In this document: in pieces, positions 1 through 51,452 of the stretch
Numbering within the stretch: the first letter of the stretch is position 1
How the letters are laid out: each line of letters opens with the position of its first letter
Made by a program: the position numbers and the translations under genes
DNA from: Escherichia phage CAjan
Reading direction: 5' to 3' (one strand)
DNA length: 59,670 nucleotides
Sequence record: KP064094
The notes under the pieces: model-generated
What the model was told of the DNA's origin: nothing
The model's input: the letters and a program-made list of their open reading frames with translations, nothing else
Databases searched by the model: none

Positions 1-558
1 ATGAACGGGGCAAGTCAAGAGCAATATGATCGTGACTGGACGAATTACATCCAGTATGCAAATAGCTTGTCCGCTGAAGAGATGGCAATACGTGACAAAG
101 TTGTTGCTGAGTACATGTTCGACTACAATTGGACTAACGCTTGCATGAGATGCGGGTTCAATGCTATGTTTGCACAGGAGCTTGGCCAACGCTTTGCCAC
201 GGACTGTTATGTTCGATGGAAGCTCAAGGAGATTGAAAGATCCCGTGTTCAACGTACTTCTGAGCAAGCTAACATTGAAGCAGACCTTGAGCGTCAGCAT
301 ATCATTGAAGCATTAAAACGTGAAGCTCATTATACAGGACCGGGATCTTCTCAAGCTGCTAGAGTCGCCGCATTGGGCAAGCTTGCACAAATTTATGATT
401 TGGATGCTCCCAAGAAGGCTAAGATTGATGTTACTAACAGAGGCGGCGTAATGATAGTCCCTGCTGTAGCAAATATTGACGAATGGGAAAAAACTGCATC
501 CGAGTCTCAACAACGACTAGTTAAAGAGACTGAAGATGGAGCTAAACCGACAACCTGA
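1..558 (+). CDS. putative terminase small subunit
   Basis: 185-aa ORF beginning with ATG at window position 1, immediately upstream of and overlapping the large terminase gene; assigned by synteny only. Confidence 0.45.
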   Translation: MNGASQEQYDRDWTNYIQYANSLSAEEMAIRDKVVAEYMFDYNWTNACMRCGFNAMFAQELGQRFATDCYVRWKLKEIERSRVQRTSEQANIEADLERQHIIEALKREAHYTGPGSSQAARVAALGKLAQIYDLDAPKKAKIDVTNRGGVMIVPAVANIDEWEKTASESQQRLVKETEDGAKPTT

Positions 559-2095
559 TAACATGCCGCGAGTAGTCTGGAAACCACATCCAGGTTCACA
601 GACACTCGCTCTATCCTGCCCCGCTGATATTATCCTATACCACGGAACTCGCGGTCCTGGAAAAACGGACTGCCAGCTTATGCGTTTCCGTAAGAACGTT
701 GGCGTAGGGTACGGTAAATTTTGGAAGGGTATTATATTCGACCGTGAATATAAAAACCTTGATGACCTTGTAACTAAATCCCAGCGTTGGTTTCCTGAAT
801 TTAAAGACGGGGCTAAATTCCTTAGCTCTAAGTCTGATTATAAATGGGTTTGGCCTACAGGTGAAGAGCTACTGTTCCGCGTTGCTTGTAAAGAAAAGGA
901 TTACTGGTCTTATCACGGTCACGAATACCCATTTATCGGATGGAACGAATTAACAAAATATCCGGACGGGCGTTTGTTTGAAGCTATGATGTCCTGTAAC
1001 CGTTCATCTTTCTTACCAGAAGATAACCCAATTATTAATCCAGATGGTACGGTCACATATTTACCGGATATCCCTCTTGAAGTGTTTGCTACCAGTAACC
1101 CGTTTGGTGCGGGGCATAACTGGGTTAAGAAACGCTTCATTGACGCTGCACCGATGGGTAAAATACTCAGGAAGACTACGAGAGTGTTTAACCCGAGGAC
1201 GCAGAAAGACGAAGATGTGGTTACGACGCAATGCCATATCTTTGGTTCGTACCGTGAAAACAAAAACCTAAGTCCAAAATATATTGCAGAACTTATGTCT
1301 ATCACAGACCCGAACAAGCGTGCTGCATGGTTGGGCGGGAGCTGGGATATTACATCCGGTGGTATGTTCGATGACCTGTGGCGTAGCACTGTTCACAAAG
1401 TACGACCATTCCCGATTCCAGCGAGTTGGAAGATTACACGTTCTTTCGACTGGGGTTCTTCAAAACCGTTTTCTATCGGTTGGTGGGCTATTAGTGATGG
1501 TTCGGATGTTGTGCGTGAAGATGGCACTACATTCTCCACGGTCCGCGGTGACCTGTTTAGGATTAACGAATGGTATGGGACCAACGGTAAAACAAACGAA
1601 GGTCTACATTTGCTGGACTCAGAAATTGCAAGCGGTATACTGGAGCGGGAATTGGCCTGGGGTATACACGATCGTGTAGTTCCTGGTCCTGCGGATAACT
1701 CCATTTGGGATCTGGAGAACAATAACTCCACCGCTGCAACAATGGCGAAGAAAATTCGTCTTAACGGGAAGTTATACAACGGTATACATTGGAAGCGCAG
1801 TGATAAGTCTGCTGGGTCACGTAAACGAGGCTGGCAGAAAATGCGTGAGTTCCTTAAAGCTGCACTGCGGGAAGATGCGAACGGTAAACCTTTGCCCGGT
1901 CCGCGCGAGAATCCGGCAATGTACATTTTTGATAACTGCAACTATTTCTTTGAGCTGGTTCCAAGTCTACCTCGCGATGAAGTGGACCAGGACGACGTTG
2001 ATACGGAATGTGAAGACCATATGGGTGATGAAGTTCGTTATATGGTTCTGGATCAAGCTGTTTATACAGGTGTTGGCAAAACTATCGGTATTTAA
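536..2095 (+). CDS. terL: terminase large subunit
   Basis: 519 aa; N-terminal P-loop-like segment GTRGPGKTD and acidic C-terminal nuclease-like region; sits before the portal gene. Alternative ATG at 563. Confidence 0.8.
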   Translation: MELNRQPDNMPRVVWKPHPGSQTLALSCPADIILYHGTRGPGKTDCQLMRFRKNVGVGYGKFWKGIIFDREYKNLDDLVTKSQRWFPEFKDGAKFLSSKSDYKWVWPTGEELLFRVACKEKDYWSYHGHEYPFIGWNELTKYPDGRLFEAMMSCNRSSFLPEDNPIINPDGTVTYLPDIPLEVFATSNPFGAGHNWVKKRFIDAAPMGKILRKTTRVFNPRTQKDEDVVTTQCHIFGSYRENKNLSPKYIAELMSITDPNKRAAWLGGSWDITSGGMFDDLWRSTVHKVRPFPIPASWKITRSFDWGSSKPFSIGWWAISDGSDVVREDGTTFSTVRGDLFRINEWYGTNGKTNEGLHLLDSEIASGILERELAWGIHDRVVPGPADNSIWDLENNNSTAATMAKKIRLNGKLYNGIHWKRSDKSAGSRKRGWQKMREFLKAALREDANGKPLPGPRENPAMYIFDNCNYFFELVPSLPRDEVDQDDVDTECEDHMGDEVRYMVLDQAVYTGVGKTIGI

Positions 2096-39014: not shown

Positions 39015-39902
39015 TTACTGCTGCCACGGCGGGACTGCTGCTTGTGCCGGATGCGGTTCAGCTTGCTGCTGGGGCTGAGCTTGCTGCTGAGGTGCTGCTG
39101 CCTGGCCCGGCTGTGCTACCTGCTGCGCCCACGGCTGCTGAGCTGCTTCCTGTGCTACTGGCTGTTGTACCGGAGCTTGCTGCACTGGCTGCTGTGGTGC
39201 TGCGTTTTGAGCAGGATTATCCCACGGCTGCGGTGCGGCATTCTGCCACGGTTGTGCTGCTGCGCCCTGCTGTGGTGCTGGTTGCTGCTGCACAGGCTGC
39301 TGAACTGGCTGCTGTTGCTGCACCGGAGCTTGCTGCTGTACAGGCGCTTGCTGTTGCTGTGCAAACGGGTTAGCTGCTGGTTGCTGAGGTGCTGCGCCCG
39401 GGAAAGCTGGCTGCTGTGCTGGCGCACCTGCACCGAACGGGTTAGCTACTGCCGCTTGAGCACCCATTGCTGGAGCACCTGCTTCTTTTTCTGCATACTT
39501 AACCGGATCGTTGATGTTAGCATAACCGTTAGGCTCGTTGCTGTCTTCATAACCTTCCTGAGAACGAACTTTCAGACGCAGGTTCAGCGGAATGTTATGC
39601 AGTTGAGCAGGAGTATCCCAGCGAATTACGCCAACCGCATGGGAAAGCGCGCCCAGTTGTTCGTATGCAATACGCACAGTATCTTCGTTGTCGTTGATAA
39701 CGTTGTAACGAGCAAAGATTTTACGACCTTTAGCAAAACCATCAATGATGCTAAACGTTACCTGGATCGCCATACCGCCATTTTTGGTCGGTTTAAATTC
39801 AGATGCTTCAATTACTGCTTTATACCAACCTTTCGGCAATGCGCCGTAAGAAGGTGCTTGATAGCTGCTCGCGTCAAAGTGGAAATTAGTTGGCATAGTC
39901 AT
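39015..39902 (-). CDS. putative ssDNA-binding protein (DUF669-like) with Q/A/P-rich low-complexity tail
   Basis: 295 aa; globular N-terminal about 110 aa, then a long Gln/Ala/Pro-rich tail encoded by CTG/CAG-rich DNA; next to AAA ATPase as in Sak4-type recombination modules. Confidence 0.45.
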   Translation of the reverse strand: MTMPTNFHFDASSYQAPSYGALPKGWYKAVIEASEFKPTKNGGMAIQVTFSIIDGFAKGRKIFARYNVINDNEDTVRIAYEQLGALSHAVGVIRWDTPAQLHNIPLNLRLKVRSQEGYEDSNEPNGYANINDPVKYAEKEAGAPAMGAQAAVANPFGAGAPAQQPAFPGAAPQQPAANPFAQQQQAPVQQQAPVQQQQPVQQPVQQQPAPQQGAAAQPWQNAAPQPWDNPAQNAAPQQPVQQAPVQQPVAQEAAQQPWAQQVAQPGQAAAPQQQAQPQQQAEPHPAQAAVPPWQQ

Positions 39903-46543: not shown

Positions 46544-46567
46544 AAAGGGCCAAATGGCCCTTTATTT
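46544..46567. terminator. bidirectional terminator
   Basis: AAAGGGCC-AAAT-GGCCCTTTATTT between convergent genes 46315-46539 (+) and 46566-48908 (-). Confidence 0.6.
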
Positions 46568-48908
46568 ATTCCTCTTCTCCTAAGTTTGCCATAATACCTT
46601 CAACATCTTGCGTAATGCGCCAAGCCGCGCCAGTGAATCCCAGTTTGATAGTCTCCTCCCGTGTTACCGGAACAAGGGCACCCATAGCAACCATCTCTTT
46701 GATTGTAGACTCAATTGCTGCGGACAATCCGTGGTGATAGTTTTTAAACGCGGACTTACTTGCAAGACGAGTAGTAATATCACCCCGCGTGATAATACCT
46801 TCTTTACGCAGATCTACACGTTTAACTTTCACCCAATCTTTAGTTAGATAATTCACACAAACCTGGCACATAGTACGGATACGAGCTTCGTCATTAGTAC
46901 CGATACCCCCACTATGCCATTCCTTCATAATGATATCCTGTCCATGACGCACAAAGTCCAAGGCCCATTGAACATGATAGGTCTGCACAACCGGATTGAT
47001 CCAGTTTTCTCCCACAGCTAACAGGGCGGATAGACGTAACACCTTCAGGTGCGCACGGTTCCACGGCTGGCGGATTGCTTCGTCTTTGGTTGCGTTAATA
47101 TTACGGTCGCATTCGTCGTTAAACTGATCACATAATGCTTCCGCATCCGGGCTAAACTGCACTTCAATACTTTGATGCTTTGCCATTGCGACTAAGGTGT
47201 GGTTAACAAGATGACACACCATATCCCGCAAATGCTGATCCATTGTAGTCTGCTGGTTCTTGTTTAAAGGTGGTCGATCCCCTTCATAGCGGACAACATG
47301 GAAACGGGATAAGAAACCATCCTCCATCATTTCACGCGTCAACGCTTCAAAAAACGTGTCCGGTGTCGTTTCGCCCATGATGCTATAGGCCACACCTTGT
47401 TGAGCTTCCGTATTATTAGCCTTATCAGAATAAGACATACCACCAACAATAGACATCTGACCGGACTTTTGATAAATATCGGTAAGGTCATTCTTGAAGC
47501 TTTGCATTGGTGAACCTGCTGGCGCCGTTGCCATTGCTTTAATAATCTTACCAAACTCACCGTTCAAGTTGATAAAAGATTGTTTGTCCGCAAAAGATTT
47601 ACGCAGTGCGGAGCCGGAAGCGCATCGGTCAAAGGATACAAAGCTATGAATCTGCGGAAACGGTTCCTGAAGCTGGCTAACTATATTAGATAGCCCACTG
47701 TTCAACGTTTCTTTACCAACACCAGAACGAGCAATAAGGACGAAATATCCATTAAGACCCGATTGCGGAATCTGCCAGACCTTCCCGCATACCCCAGCCA
47801 TAAAGCCTAGCGCTGTCACAATAGAAATTTCTTTCACTGGTCGGACGGAGGCTTTATAGATGTATTTCGCAAGCTCCCCAGCAAGCCCCGGCGGCCAGTC
47901 AATAGCGGTTGCATCAATAGATGTACTTTCTGCAACTACTGTCTGCCCCTGTGTTGTTTCAACAGTTACGGGCATTTCCGCTACCTGCTGCATTGCACTG
48001 TGTGCCGCTTGCATACGGGCAGCATAATCCCGCGCCAGCGCCGCTACGTTTTCCTGGGCAATGCGCTCACGCTCCATGCGACCGCGACACATACGCAAGC
48101 AACGGTCAATATGAACATTGTTCTTATTAGCCTTCTCACGTTTGCCCAGCGCACTATAACGGAACAGACGGCGACATTGCTCATTACTTTCCGTGTAGAA
48201 TGCATACATAGAGATAAGGGCAAGGTCTGCTTCAGACTGGGAAGGGAATCCCATTTCAACCCATTCACCGTTAAATAACCGTGCATACTTATCGCCGTTA
48301 TCCGCTTCAAGTGCACGCTGATGAATAGTTGCATCATCTTCTACCGGATCTTTTTCTACCAGTTCAATTTCATATGTCTTGCGCTGAAGATCAATTTCAT
48401 TCACAAGCATAGTAAGGTAATGATCACGTTCTGCAACTGGTTTGTTGTAGACGGGATTGCCCGTGCAGATAATAAAACGCTCCTGACTATAAACCTCGAC
48501 ACCATCACGTCGACGACCTTTACCGATGTTACCTCTTAACCACAGGTGGACACCCAGGCCTGAGCGACTTACTTCGGTGTAAGTATCGAACGCAGTCATG
48601 ATCTGTTCGAAGCGGCGCAACTGCTCTGGCGTCGTGTGCTTCTTGGGATCAGGTTCATTGGTTGCGTTCTTCACATCCAGGTCGATGCAGGTGAACGGGT
48701 CTTGTGCAGTAAGCACGAATCCAATATAAGGTTTATTAAAATGAGCGGCGCAACCTTTGGCAGCTTCAAACGTCATAAGCATATCCGGATCGGTAACGTC
48801 CGCCGCCATCAAACGTCCAATATCGCTATCCCATACCAACGGCTTTTTATCCGCATCGGCCACCGCCCATTGTGGGAAAGCTTTAATTTCAGCGGGAAAC
48901 AGTTCCAT
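46566..48908 (-). CDS. primase-helicase (archaeo-eukaryotic primase-type domain fused to P-loop NTPase-like domain)
   Basis: 780 aa; N-terminal AEP-like motifs (CIDLDV, SGLGVHLW) and central P-loop-like SGVGKETLNSG. Confidence 0.6.
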   Translation of the reverse strand: MELFPAEIKAFPQWAVADADKKPLVWDSDIGRLMAADVTDPDMLMTFEAAKGCAAHFNKPYIGFVLTAQDPFTCIDLDVKNATNEPDPKKHTTPEQLRRFEQIMTAFDTYTEVSRSGLGVHLWLRGNIGKGRRRDGVEVYSQERFIICTGNPVYNKPVAERDHYLTMLVNEIDLQRKTYEIELVEKDPVEDDATIHQRALEADNGDKYARLFNGEWVEMGFPSQSEADLALISMYAFYTESNEQCRRLFRYSALGKREKANKNNVHIDRCLRMCRGRMERERIAQENVAALARDYAARMQAAHSAMQQVAEMPVTVETTQGQTVVAESTSIDATAIDWPPGLAGELAKYIYKASVRPVKEISIVTALGFMAGVCGKVWQIPQSGLNGYFVLIARSGVGKETLNSGLSNIVSQLQEPFPQIHSFVSFDRCASGSALRKSFADKQSFINLNGEFGKIIKAMATAPAGSPMQSFKNDLTDIYQKSGQMSIVGGMSYSDKANNTEAQQGVAYSIMGETTPDTFFEALTREMMEDGFLSRFHVVRYEGDRPPLNKNQQTTMDQHLRDMVCHLVNHTLVAMAKHQSIEVQFSPDAEALCDQFNDECDRNINATKDEAIRQPWNRAHLKVLRLSALLAVGENWINPVVQTYHVQWALDFVRHGQDIIMKEWHSGGIGTNDEARIRTMCQVCVNYLTKDWVKVKRVDLRKEGIITRGDITTRLASKSAFKNYHHGLSAAIESTIKEMVAMGALVPVTREETIKLGFTGAAWRITQDVEGIMANLGEEE

Positions 48909-48914
48909 ATTAAA

Positions 48915-49118
48915 TTAAGACCTCCGACGCTTATCGCCTTGCATTGCTATAAGTGCTGGCTCAGCAATTTCACGCACGTATACAAATACGTTAGCGATAC
49001 GAACAGCTCCAGGAAGTATATCTCGATTGCGGCACAACTTATAACGACTAACCCCGAAACGGGCTTCAATCTCTGATGTGGTTATATACTTAGCATCAAA
49101 CTCGTCTTGTGCAGTCAT
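48915..49118 (-). CDS. helix-turn-helix DNA-binding protein
   Basis: 67 aa, HTH-like ITTSEIEARFGVSRYKLCRNRD; strong SD AGGAGG. Confidence 0.5.
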   Translation of the reverse strand: MTAQDEFDAKYITTSEIEARFGVSRYKLCRNRDILPGAVRIANVFVYVREIAEPALIAMQGDKRRRS

Positions 49119-49179: not shown

Positions 49180-49962
49180 TTATTGCGCAGCAAAGTTCGC
49201 ATATCCCATAACGCATTCATATACCTCTTCAGGAGTGCGACCTTCCCGTAGATTTATCATCCATTCGTCCAATTGTCCAAGGCGTTGCTGAGCCTTCGCA
49301 ATGTCATGAAATGCTTGCCATGGAAAAAAGTTTCCCCCAGCTAGTGCAACCTCTATGCCCGTAGCGGCGTTGCCATATGCCTTGAGCTTGCAAACAGGCC
49401 AACGTCCACGATTATCCCAAATTGCTGGTTCCACATTTTTATCCGGTCGCGAATACCATCTATTTTTAAGCGATGTGATTTCTTTTTCCGTTAACTGCTC
49501 ACCCTTCGCACGCTCATTCTTGGCAAGCCAAACTTTAAACGCGGACTCATTATTTTTATCCTTTGTTTGGCAAACCTTAAAAGCATTCTCATATGGTGCC
49601 TGCGGTCCAAACCGTTTGTAGTAGTCAAACTTGCCGCGGAACTTTGCAACTTCTTTAGTTGTAAGTTCACGGTTTTCTTTTTCCTTTATTTGTTCGCGCA
49701 CCCATGTCATAAACTTATCACGCTCAGGGTTTTCTTTTTTTGCAGCAGCTTTTCCGTGTTTAACTTTAGACTTCACATCTTGTGCGCTATCAAAATAATC
49801 CTCAACCATCTTAAGAGCCTGCTCTTTAGTTACCTTTCCGCGAATACGGGAACACGCTTGCACGACCCAAGCAGCGAAGCACAAATCCTTAACCACATTT
49901 GGGTGAGTGCTGGTCGGCTGTTCCTCCGCCACCGCGTTATTGTTAGTCAGCTCTGTATTCAT
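49180..49962 (-). CDS. hypothetical protein
   Basis: about 261 aa from ATG 49962 with SD GGAGG; Lys-rich; first gene downstream of the CCCTAT repeat region. Confidence 0.45.
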   Translation of the reverse strand: MNTELTNNNAVAEEQPTSTHPNVVKDLCFAAWVVQACSRIRGKVTKEQALKMVEDYFDSAQDVKSKVKHGKAAAKKENPERDKFMTWVREQIKEKENRELTTKEVAKFRGKFDYYKRFGPQAPYENAFKVCQTKDKNNESAFKVWLAKNERAKGEQLTEKEITSLKNRWYSRPDKNVEPAIWDNRGRWPVCKLKAYGNAATGIEVALAGGNFFPWQAFHDIAKAQQRLGQLDEWMINLREGRTPEEVYECVMGYANFAAQ

Positions 49963-49967
49963 ATAGC

Positions 49968-50260
49968 CTCCGATAGGGTATTGCCTTAACCCTATGGTAA
50001 GACCCTCCCTATTAAATTGCAAGAGTTATTGTAAAACAATAGGTATAGGGTGCAATACAGGGTTCATATAGGGTAACCCTATAAACACCCTATAAAATAC
50101 CCTCCCTATGCAGCTTTCTAAATTTATAGTTTTAGTTTACCCCTTGCGCCCCCGCAGAAAAACTAAAGATAGGGGTACTAGGGTAAACATTGGCAAATAC
50201 CCTATACCCTACTCCCTATACTATGATTCTAAAAAATTTGGTGTATACCCCTATAAACTT
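49968..50260. repeat. array of CCCTAT/ATAGGG repeats (iteron-like) followed by AT-rich tract to about 50420
   Basis: At least 12 copies of the CCCTAT(A) core in both orientations within about 300 bp, including palindrome ATAGGGTAACCCTAT and runs such as ACCCTATACCCTACTCCCTATAC. Confidence 0.6.
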
Positions 50261-50592
50261 ATAAACTTTCAGTCAACTAACTAAAATAAAACTAATTAAA
50301 CTAATATTAATAATAACTATAAATATATATAAAATAAGGATTTATTATTATTGTATATAGTACCTATTGGTATTATGTGATGAGTTTATAGTCACTAAAT
50401 AAACTCTATAAATTTTAATAAACCTGAACGGATGCAGATCAAAAATGAGAAGTCAAGTGCTTTTGAGGGAAATTTATTGAACTATTGTGATCGGAAGGTA
50501 TATCAAGCTATAATGCGCTTAATCGCGGGATATTGGAGGAGGACTTTATTGCGCGGTTAACCGGACCAGTAGGAGGGCTGGCCCGGAGTAGT

Positions 50593-50919
50593 TTAGAGCT
50601 GTACAGGTATAAAGTGGGCTAATGTGTCGTCGGACATAATACCCGACAATTTTTCGCTTACCCATTCGGACCAAATGCTATCCGGTTCCTGGCGATGCAC
50701 AAACCAGATTTCGGAAGTGCCTTCTTTGCGCATTGGTTGCACTTCTACGAGGAACTTGTCCTGCATAAGGCGGGTGAAGCAGACGCTGGTCATTGGAACC
50801 GGCTTTTCGTGTTTATTGTAATAAGGAGTCAGTAATTTATTTCCGAAGTTAGCAACTTCATAAACTGTTCCTTTGCGAAGACCTCTGATGTCTGTGTAAG
50901 AGCGGATAAATGTTTTCAT
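50593..50919 (-). CDS. hypothetical protein
   Basis: about 108 aa from ATG 50919 with SD AGGAG. Confidence 0.4.
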   Translation of the reverse strand: MKTFIRSYTDIRGLRKGTVYEVANFGNKLLTPYYNKHEKPVPMTSVCFTRLMQDKFLVEVQPMRKEGTSEIWFVHRQEPDSIWSEWVSEKLSGIMSDDTLAHFIPVQL

Positions 50920-50969
50920 GCTCACTCCTAGGGCTCCCGCAGAAGCCCGTTGGTTGATGTGGTTATAGA

Positions 50970-51452
50970 TTATGCGTCCAGACCGTGGTTGGCGTGAAAT
51001 TTGTAATGCTCTTCCGCTTGTTTACGGGCCTGTTTTGCGTCCTCTATAGTATCATATAAACCTAGATACTTTTTCAATCCGTTTATTTGAATGTAAGCCT
51101 GAAATTTACATGCCTTTTTATTAAAGTAAACTCCTGTTACTCCGGTAGAGTTATTTATTGCCCTGCTAAGATTTTTACTATTATCGCTTGGCAACACTAA
51201 GCGCAAATTCTCTATGCGGTCGTCCCATGTACAATGGTTAATATGGTCTATTTGATGTCCTTCCGGTATCGGGCCTTTATGCAACTCCCATACTAACCTT
51301 GAACGACGATATAGTTTTCCCTTGTATCCTATCAGGATGTATCCGCGCTTATTTGGTACACCAGCTTTACTACCGATAGAAATCTGTTTAGCTGGTTTTA
51401 TTTTCCAAAATAATTCTCCGTTTTGATAGCTGAAGATATTATTTAAGTCCAT
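50970..51452 (-). CDS. HNH homing endonuclease with AP2 DNA-binding domain
   Basis: 160 aa; HNH motif (HQIDHINHCTWDDRIENLRLV) and AP2-like segment (TGVTGVYFNKKACKFQAYIQINGLKKYLGLYDTIEDAKQARKQAEEHY). Confidence 0.7.
   Translation of the reverse strand: MDLNNIFSYQNGELFWKIKPAKQISIGSKAGVPNKRGYILIGYKGKLYRRSRLVWELHKGPIPEGHQIDHINHCTWDDRIENLRLVLPSDNSKNLSRAINNSTGVTGVYFNKKACKFQAYIQINGLKKYLGLYDTIEDAKQARKQAEEHYKFHANHGLDA

Follow-up and report, generated by a model that had tools for sequence, protein, structure and literature searches.

A candidate replication origin and operon control region with two co-varying repeat families in Escherichia phage CAjan and related Seuratvirus phages

Introduction

The Rep and PriRep proteins of the Staphylococcus aureus pathogenicity islands (SaPIs) are self-loading helicases (PMC9371898). 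Residues 676-790 of PriRep5 form a C-terminal winged helix that recognizes 6-12 penta- or hexanucleotide iterons, and deletion of this C-terminal domain abolishes origin binding (PMC9371898). An AT-rich region separates these iterons into two sets of at least two, which include copies in opposite directions, and the origin is found directly downstream of the rep gene (PMC9371898). Here we describe an intergenic region of Escherichia phage CAjan (sequence record KP064094; the whole 59,670-bp stretch analyzed is termed the window) that resembles these origins. The region, at 49963-50592, carries two families of short repeats: outer CCCTAT hexamers, and inner TATAAAC heptamers that bracket an AT-rich tract. 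Across related phages the two repeat families change together with two different phage proteins, and on this comparative basis the region is, with moderate confidence, read as a replication origin that has a PriRep-type core and a cassette-specific array of operator or auxiliary sites, and that also controls the adjoining operon.

Other described origins share parts of this layout. The alpha protein of phage P4 is a single polypeptide with primase, helicase and a C-terminal DNA-binding domain that recognizes octamer repeats at the origin; a further cluster of repeats, crr, is required at a distance of several kb. The core origins of SV40/polyomavirus and of the papillomaviruses have inverted arrays of pentamers or hexamers by an AT tract, a helicase that serves as initiator, sites for auxiliary factors, and promoters. 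Iteron plasmids (pPS10, R6K, RK2, P1) have 17-22 bp direct repeats in helical phase, a winged-helix Rep protein and usually DnaA boxes (PMC4980987). A literature search for a Seuratvirus or Queuovirinae origin returned nothing relevant, and as far as searched no origin has been described for these phages.

The window is a complete or nearly complete genome of an E. coli siphophage of the genus Seuratvirus (Queuovirinae), and around the region of interest it is 97-99% identical to phages Seurat and slur01. It was compared with about 40 related, non-independent sequences consisting of GenBank records and of metagenome and IMG/VR loci. A scan of IMG/VR with an invariant 18-mer gave mostly unrelated AT-rich matches, and 3 of 33 were useful.

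Results and Discussion

Inner heptamers and the primase-helicase

An AT-rich tract at 50272-50421 (16% GC) is the least stable duplex of the window; its nearest-neighbour free energy has a z of 5.5 vs 3.0 for the runner-up, as calculated over the whole 59.7 kb. It is a candidate DNA-unwinding element. The original prediction had described about 150 bp of nearly pure A+T at this place, and the tract stands, although "nearly pure" slightly overstates its composition. Alignment across phages displays an invariant centre at 50319-50375, ATAAATATATATAAAATAAGGATTTATTA..TA.TGTATATAGTACCTATTGGTATTA, that is kept in phages with primase-helicase alleles A and B and with all three groups of outer array described below, and largely kept with allele C.

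Six heptamers are found around this centre: two direct copies on the left, and one inverted and three direct copies on the right. The left iterons (50247-50266, plus strand) read CCCCTATAAAC-T-TATAAAC and contain the two direct TATAAAC copies. The right iterons (50384-50423) consist of the inverted GTTTATA at 50384-50390, ATAAAC at 50399-50404, TATAAAT at 50407-50413 and ATAAAC at 50418-50423. The positions of the heptamers in the window are thus 50252, 50260, 50384 (inverted), 50399, 50407 and 50418. ATAAAC is present five times in 50240-50430, where 0.39 copies are expected, and one related locus (L063) has three perfect TATAAAC copies 10-11 bp apart at the right iterons.

The heptamer word differs between phages at fixed positions, and three types are found: TATAAAC (a), C(C/T)AAAAC (b) and ATAAAAT (c). 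The left iterons read CCAAAAAC-CTAAAAC in phages with primase-helicase allele B, and CTACAAA../TAAAAAA in those with allele C. The primase-helicase in question is a protein of 780 aa encoded at 46566-48908 on the minus strand. Pfam and PHROG profiles show a prim-pol domain, an NrS-1-type helix-bundle, a helicase and a C-terminal domain (aa 666-780, nt 46569-46913); Pfam DUF3987 is found in the helicase part of alleles B and C. A phmmer search of the PDB gave as best match 7OLA, which is PriRep5 of SaPI5 (E = 7.6e-11, primase domain only), followed by the NrS-1 primases at about 1e-7.

Pairing of allele and heptamer type (A/a, B/b, C/c) is without exception in 31 GenBank records, nine metagenome or IMG/VR loci and four loci taken from relatives of gp62, the gene left of the region. 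Allele A is present in 12 of the GenBank records, and these 12, and no others, have a core that aligns at 90% or more to that of the window. All 19 records with allele B lack an a-type core, and those read directly are b-type. Allele and core type match in each of the nine metagenome or IMG/VR loci, and two loci with allele C carry c-type heptamers. The cassette situated between the primase gene and the core assorts independently of this pairing, in that A/a, B/b and C/c all occur beside the group 2 cassette. In A and B phages the flanking segments share 91-99% identity, with no clade signal.

The part of the protein that follows the heptamers can be narrowed down. Identity between alleles is 79-99% in the prim-pol domain, and the C-terminal domain (aa 666-780) is the most divergent part, with 36-44% identity. 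Alleles A and B are 99% identical at aa 1-265 and approximately 42% identical in the C-terminal domain, with a breakpoint near aa 320. Alleles B and C are 80% identical in the ATPase domain and 36% identical in the C-terminal domain, and their iterons differ; the phages SA126VB and STP-SP5 are 87% identical in the C-terminal domain, and their iterons are the same. These identities map the co-variation to the C-terminal domain. Initiator and origin thus appear to be matched in specificity between related elements, and from this co-variation we infer that the primase-helicase is the protein that recognizes the origin.

The outer hexamer array

Motif enumeration gives 12 exact copies of CCCTAT in 49973-50254, eight on the plus and four on the minus strand, out of 22 in the whole window; the at least 12 CCCTAT(A) cores in both orientations that had been predicted for the region are therefore present. 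In composition-matched shuffles of 49963-50260 an average of 0.13 copies is found and none of 5000 shuffles had 12 or more, which corresponds to a local enrichment of about 90-fold. The shorter core CCCTA has 14 copies. The predicted palindrome, tandem and direct repeat are also present: the palindrome ATAGGGTAACCCTAT at 50068-50082, a tandem with a period of 7 at 50199-50221, and the TATAAACT x2 direct repeat at 50252-50268. CCCTAT is clustered nowhere else in the window, and the sole other local cluster of a 6-mer is a coding repeat of the GCA type near 39.05 kb. The latter is a GCAGCA-type trinucleotide repeat at approximately 39050-39350, with 13 copies in 300 bp and a local GC content of 53%, and it is situated in the C-terminal half of a DUF669-family protein (open reading frame [ORF] 39015-39902, minus strand).

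The hexamers form two clusters, with spacings of 7 to 66 bp and copies in both orientations. Cluster I (49973-50109) has eight exact CCCTAT copies, at 49973 (minus), 49990 (plus), 50007 (plus), 50045 (minus), 50068 (minus), 50077 (plus), 50088 (plus) and 50104 (plus), and is roughly dyad-symmetric about the palindrome at 50068-50082. Cluster II (50169-50219) has ATAGGG at 50169 and TAGGG at 50179, followed by CCCTAT at 50200, CCCTAC at 50207 and CCCTAT at 50214. It is an inverted arrangement that adjoins the proposed origin core, and its right-side copies have a period of 7. A further CCCTAT copy, at 50249, marks the boundary of the inner repeat family and is also kept in relatives that have CACTAT arrays. 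The spacer between the two clusters (50110-50168) is semi-conserved in groups 1 and 2 (...TTTATAGTTTTAGTTTACCCCTT...CCCCG...). Its core, ...GTTTACCCCTT...CCCCG..., is kept in both groups despite the changed array word.

Three groups of array are found among the relatives. In group 1 (the window, Seurat, slur01 and SLUR76) the word is CCCTAT, with 11-12 copies. Group 2 (SA126VB, KurtStettler, KS_A3, KS_A8, SeppeHuegi, WildeMaa, CSP1 and Dru_SM1) has CACTAT; the hexamer ATAGTG is present in 7-10 copies and the CACTA core in 13-15. Group 3 (GottfriedDienst, Skure, VogelGryff and Salmonella phage STP-SP5) has GGAATA in 8-13 copies. When groups 1 and 2 are aligned the copies are seen at homologous positions, with the same single-base change in every copy. 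Both groups have two clusters each, and within a cluster the minus-orientation copies come first, then the plus. The layout of cluster II is kept with TAGTG/CACTA in group 2 and with GGAAT in group 3, where GGAAT arrays flank the AT-rich core on both sides. A conserved segment to the right of the tract (50431-50475) is 96-100% conserved in groups 1 and 2, and is replaced by the second GGAAT array in group 3. The CCCTAT word is therefore missing from many related phages, as it might be were the repeats without a role; yet another word is present at the same positions, and this argues for function. Concerted replacement of a word is also the pattern expected of a binding protein that co-evolves with its sites.

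Proteins that may recognize the hexamers

The best candidate for a protein that binds the CCCTAT array is gp62, encoded by a gene of 260 aa at 49180-49962 on the minus strand. In alignments of gp62, 58 columns separate the CCCTA-class from the CACTA-class phages and these are clustered at aa 60-125; the corresponding number for gp61, the small helix-turn-helix (HTH) protein encoded next to it (67 aa, 48915-49118, minus strand), is six scattered columns only. An N-terminal helix pair of gp62 is conserved across the array classes. Its family is confined to this group of phages. No match was found in Pfam, NCBIfam or the PDB, and PHROG assigns it to one family of unknown function. A fold search gave no match and the AlphaFold model is weak. 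An exhaustive HMMER profile search of 1.84 billion representative proteins returned its own two clusters and one spurious eukaryotic repeat protein. No similarity was detected between gp62 and the proteins of the group 3 cassette, and an apparent internal repeat of gp62 is not significant.

The HTH protein gp61 had originally been put forward, with the primase, for binding tests on the region. Its model (pLDDT 84) is a winged helix of the MerR/Xis/BldC type, and it matches BldC, Tn916 Xis and MerR proteins by fold with probabilities of up to 0.95 and E-values above 0.1. The gene is located upstream of the primase gene in all relatives examined, other genera included, sometimes with a small gene or an HNH endonuclease gene between the two. 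Homologues are found in all array groups and the recognition helix differs between groups. A metagenomic recombinant, locus L026, has the helix of the CACTAT group (group 2) together with CCCTAT arrays, and gp61 was rejected as the specificity partner. BldC, lambda Xis and P2 Cox coat arrays of short repeats; gp61 shares their fold in the model and the region has such arrays, but the recognition helix does not track the array word, as locus L026 shows.

The primase-helicase was also considered as the partner of CCCTAT and was rejected, since allele A is combined with CACTA in KurtStettler and allele B with GGAAT in Skure. Phage yong3, which is without gp62 and has CCCTATA-like repeats, appeared to be a counterexample to gp62; its repeat unit is CCCCTATAAAC, which is of the inner iteron type, and the phage is thus no counterexample.

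The iteron role that CCCTAT was first given does not hold with respect to the primase-helicase, which is tracked by the TATAAAC heptamers. An operator-like role fares better: the hexamers are part of a swappable cassette and overlap leftward promoter sequences, and by position they look more like operator or auxiliary sites.

Promoters and neighbouring genes

The region as a whole extends from the start of gp62 (49962, minus strand) to the stop codon of the gp63-like gene (50593-50925, minus strand). The predicted 630-bp non-coding gap between these two minus-strand genes is confirmed, and a non-coding gap of 630-830 bp is present at the same place in all Seuratvirus relatives examined. To the left, gp62 is followed by gp61 and then by the primase-helicase gene. 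No ORF in the gap is conserved, and one of 42 aa (50432-50560) is overwritten by repeats in some relatives. Small ORFs are annotated in relatives (e.g., L004 2316-2450 and L005 2815-2943), either of 135 nt within the arrays or of 129 nt corresponding to 50432-50560 of the window; they are not conserved as proteins between groups and are probably not genes. An Rfam scan of the gap gave no matches.

A position-weight scan predicts two tandem sigma-70-like leftward promoters at 49994-50055 on the minus strand, ahead of the gp62-gp61-primase operon. Their sequences are TTGCAC-16-TACAAT (50055 to 50028) and TTGCAA-17-TACCAT (50022 to 49994), each overlapped by CCCTA copies. In group 2, CACTA copies overlap the corresponding promoters; the near-consensus promoter annotated in SA126VB, TTGCCA-17-TATAAT, has two in its spacer. 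Thus repeat copies overlap the putative core promoter of the adjoining gene. A rightward sigma-70-like promoter, TTGTGA-18-TATAAT, is predicted at 50485-50514 on the plus strand with 10 of 12 matches and is kept in all groups; in Salmonella phage STP-SP5 it faces a rightward gene.

Two hairpins follow at 50519-50586 (50519-50560 and 50561-50586), with an RNA fold z of -2.5. The second, which the SA126VB annotation gives as a terminator, is situated just past the stop codon of gp63; a standard terminator scan found none. Identity across the otherwise mosaic groups is 98-99% at the right end of the gap (50476-50592). The promoter and hairpins at 50485-50586 could produce a short RNA antisense to the 3′ end of gp63, or the hairpins could be a two-way terminator.

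Genes for HNH endonucleases come and go at several places around the region (50970-51452 of the window; L012, L014, L020 and L025), which fits heavy local mosaicism. In the 6-kb loci of the distant relatives NP1, Vid5 and PSTCR7 the HTH and primase gene pair is kept, and no comparable repeat cluster is found.

Comparison with known origins

The region is similar to the origins of SaPIs and other phage-inducible chromosomal islands (PICIs) in several respects. The proposed initiator is a fused primase and helicase of about 780-790 aa, and its primase domain is homologous to that of PriRep5. An AT-rich centre is flanked left and right by short repeats that are not all in the same orientation. 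The C-terminal domain is highly variable and appears, here by co-variation, to carry the specificity, and the repeat word varies between related elements. There are also differences. The repeat units here are 7 bp and only one right-hand copy is inverted; the GGAAT pentamers of group 3 fit the SaPI description better. An extra, independent hexamer array with its own cassette is present, and the candidate origin is carried by a lytic E. coli siphophage of 60 kb and not by a satellite.

As in P4, the phages have a single primase-helicase with a C-terminal domain and short repeats at the candidate origin, whereas no second cluster of either repeat family is found in the window. Iteron plasmids have a comparable succession of AT-rich unwinding element, repeats, promoter with inverted copies, and gene, and their incompatibility groups resemble the specificity groups seen here; the units described here are however of 6-7 bp, in both orientations, with no DnaA box in the gap, and gp62 is without a recognizable Rep fold. 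In lambda an AT-rich region follows iterons that are placed within the initiator gene, whereas both repeat families of the window are intergenic. The likeness to SV40 and papillomavirus origins is architectural only, as proteins and hosts are unrelated. The general layout is classical, and the region would best be placed among the iteron-flanked, AT-centred origins read by the C-terminal domain of a primase-helicase, here with a cassette-specific array of operator or auxiliary sites added.

Proposed mechanism and alternatives

From the anatomy, the statistics and the co-variation, we infer the following order of binding, unwinding, priming and promoter activity. The origin core would comprise approximately 50247-50423, in which the invariant AT-rich centre would be the unwinding element, bracketed by the TATAAAC heptamers. 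The primase-helicase would bind these heptamers via its C-terminal domain, self-load on both sides of the centre, melt the AT-rich DNA and prime synthesis, in the manner of SaPI Rep and PriRep. Between the core and the gp62 start codon, 11-13 CCCTAT-type hexamers in two inverted clusters (49973-50219) would constitute a specificity array, to which a cassette protein, probably gp62, may bind. Such binding would repress or tune the promoters of the gp62-gp61-primase operon (autoregulation), and may assist or license the firing of the origin. The divergent promoters (49994-50055 leftward and 50485-50514 rightward) may in addition feed negative supercoiling into the AT-rich tract. The general proposal originally made, of an origin or auto-regulated control region upstream of the operon with the HTH protein and primase, fits the comparative evidence; the details differ from those first given.

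Several observations weigh against this interpretation. A double-crossover swap of a cassette keeps its two flanks together by default, and the case for selection rests on the absence of single-crossover recombinants in the highly similar prim-pol region, among about 40 sequences that are not independent of each other. The homology to PriRep5 was seen for the primase domain only, and the core, with gp61 and gp62 between it and the primase gene, is situated about 1.3 kb upstream of the start codon of that gene and not directly downstream of the initiator gene as in SaPIs. The co-varying part of gp62 physically adjoins the array, and linkage could account for its association with the array word. 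The group 3 phages and yong3 are without gp62, and there is no candidate for the protein that would bind GGAAT. No DnaA box (TTATCCACA, with one mismatch or fewer) is found inside 49963-50592. The minimum of the cumulative GC skew, at approximately 50-54 kb, coincides with a switch in gene strand, and because of this confounding the skew is uninformative on the origin.

The alternative that survives best, one that we nevertheless regard as unlikely, is that the region functions in the control of transcription only, with divergent early or middle promoters, arrays that are operators of regulators encoded by the cassettes, and the origin elsewhere; the AT-rich tract would then be an UP-element, curved DNA or an H-NS-type site. 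It is consistent with the promoter-like sites on both sides of the tract and the array copies over the leftward ones, and in STP-SP5 and yong3, where a rightward gene adjoins, the gap is truly divergent. Proteins with the MerR/Xis/BldC-like fold of gp61 bind arrays of short repeats, and the confinement of the motif cluster to this single place in the genome fits autoregulation. Twelve to 15 sites are many for an operator, however, and transcription control leaves three features unexplained: the heptamers, which are 200 bp or more upstream of the leftward promoters, vary in step with the primase-helicase C-terminal domain; the invariant centre is the least stable duplex of the genome; and short repeats are placed on both sides of it as in SaPI origins.

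Less probable still is an origin of the iteron-plasmid or lambda kind, in which the CCCTAT hexamers are the true iterons, gp62 is a melting initiator that recruits the primase-helicase, and the TATAAAC heptamers are incidental; inverted copies over the gp62 promoter would provide autoregulation. In its favour are the order of AT-rich tract, repeats, promoter and gene, as in iteron plasmids, the co-variation of gp62 with the array class, and the position of the array directly by the AT-rich tract; the conserved N-terminal helix pair of gp62 could also contact a conserved partner. But the repeats are of 6 bp, irregularly spaced and in both orientations, and not direct repeats of 17-22 bp in helical phase, and gp62 belongs to no initiator-like fold or family. 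Group 3, STP-SP5 and yong3 share core and primase without gp62, and the exceptionless pairing of the C-terminal domain with the heptamers has no place in such a scheme.

A packaging (pac), partition or recombination site, or a mosaic junction with non-functional leftover repeats, is very improbable: the region is a hotspot of mosaicism with cassette swaps and nearby HNH endonuclease genes, and some pac sites, such as that of phage P1, are clustered hexamers, but the terminase genes that open the window (1-2095) are 9.4 kb from the gap, the linkage is to a replication protein and not to terminase, and decay would not keep positions while the words of two separate families change in concert.

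A genome-wide 8-mer

The most over-represented 8-mer in the window by far is TAACCACA (complement TGTGGTTA), with 47 copies vs 2.2 expected. Its sites include 1216, 3321, 3455 and 59298, with a mean spacing of 1.26 kb and random flanks, and those in the primase gene are found on both strands and in more than one reading frame. The density in relatives, Pantoea phage Vid5 included, is 0.5-1.3 per kb, and PSTCR7 is also dense in copies; Pseudomonas phage NP1 has 0.16-0.32 per kb and pooled unrelated control loci have 0.09 per kb. A genome-wide orientation bias is weak and not significant. A literature search on the 8-mer found no phage paper that mentions it.

The prim-pol of NrS-1 has the template recognition sequences 5′-TTTGGTTA-3′ and 5′-GTG(G/A)-3′ (PMC8718748). 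The 8-mer resembles both, and the primase of the window has an NrS-1 helix-bundle domain; by this likeness the 8-mer may be a priming signal. One copy, 5′-TGTGGTTA-3′, is located at 49890-49897 on the minus strand, approximately 440 bp left of the AT-rich centre, and the partner copy nearest to the gap on the right is at 50958-50965 on the plus strand. In each of 16 loci a copy with TGTGGTTA on its bottom strand is present at a distance of 423-481 bp to the left of the core centre. The position of this left copy is kept whether it is coding in gp62 (an N-V-V-K-D motif) or non-coding (group 3, STP-SP5 and yong3). The first two copies right of the core always have TGTGGTTA on the top strand, and the nearest copies face the core. 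Such a convergent arrangement is what chain starts running through the origin would require; it is offered as a lead and not as a result. Should the 8-mer prove to mark the start points of the primase, a recognition word of this length with an imprint on an entire genome would be a rare case.

In the DNA upstream of the HTH gene in group 3 (L010, approximately 2360-2400; L011 and L019) the sequence TGTGAGCGGAT, which equals the left half of lac operator O1, is found beside TAACCACA. This half-match may be a coincidence.

Implications

A stronger proposal, which we consider doubtful, is that of a "two-key" origin, whereby firing would need both the C-terminal domain of the primase on the heptamers and a cassette protein (gp62 or its group 3 counterpart) on the hexamers, with the prim-pol starting at TGTGGTTA. 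The two keys would define replication-specificity groups among co-infecting Seuratvirus phages, a phage counterpart of plasmid incompatibility, and this would drive the shuffling of cassettes.

The region described here provides a candidate origin, resolved to the base, for Seuratvirus and the Queuovirinae, which are common E. coli phages used in collections and in therapy research. The relatives form a natural specificity-swap series of three or four pairs of iterons and C-terminal domains together with three types of array, and this series makes the hypotheses directly testable. The pairs may also provide orthogonal sets of origin and initiator for phage engineering. If confirmed, the origin would show that the self-loading helicase origin of Staphylococcus satellites also works in lytic enterobacterial phages.

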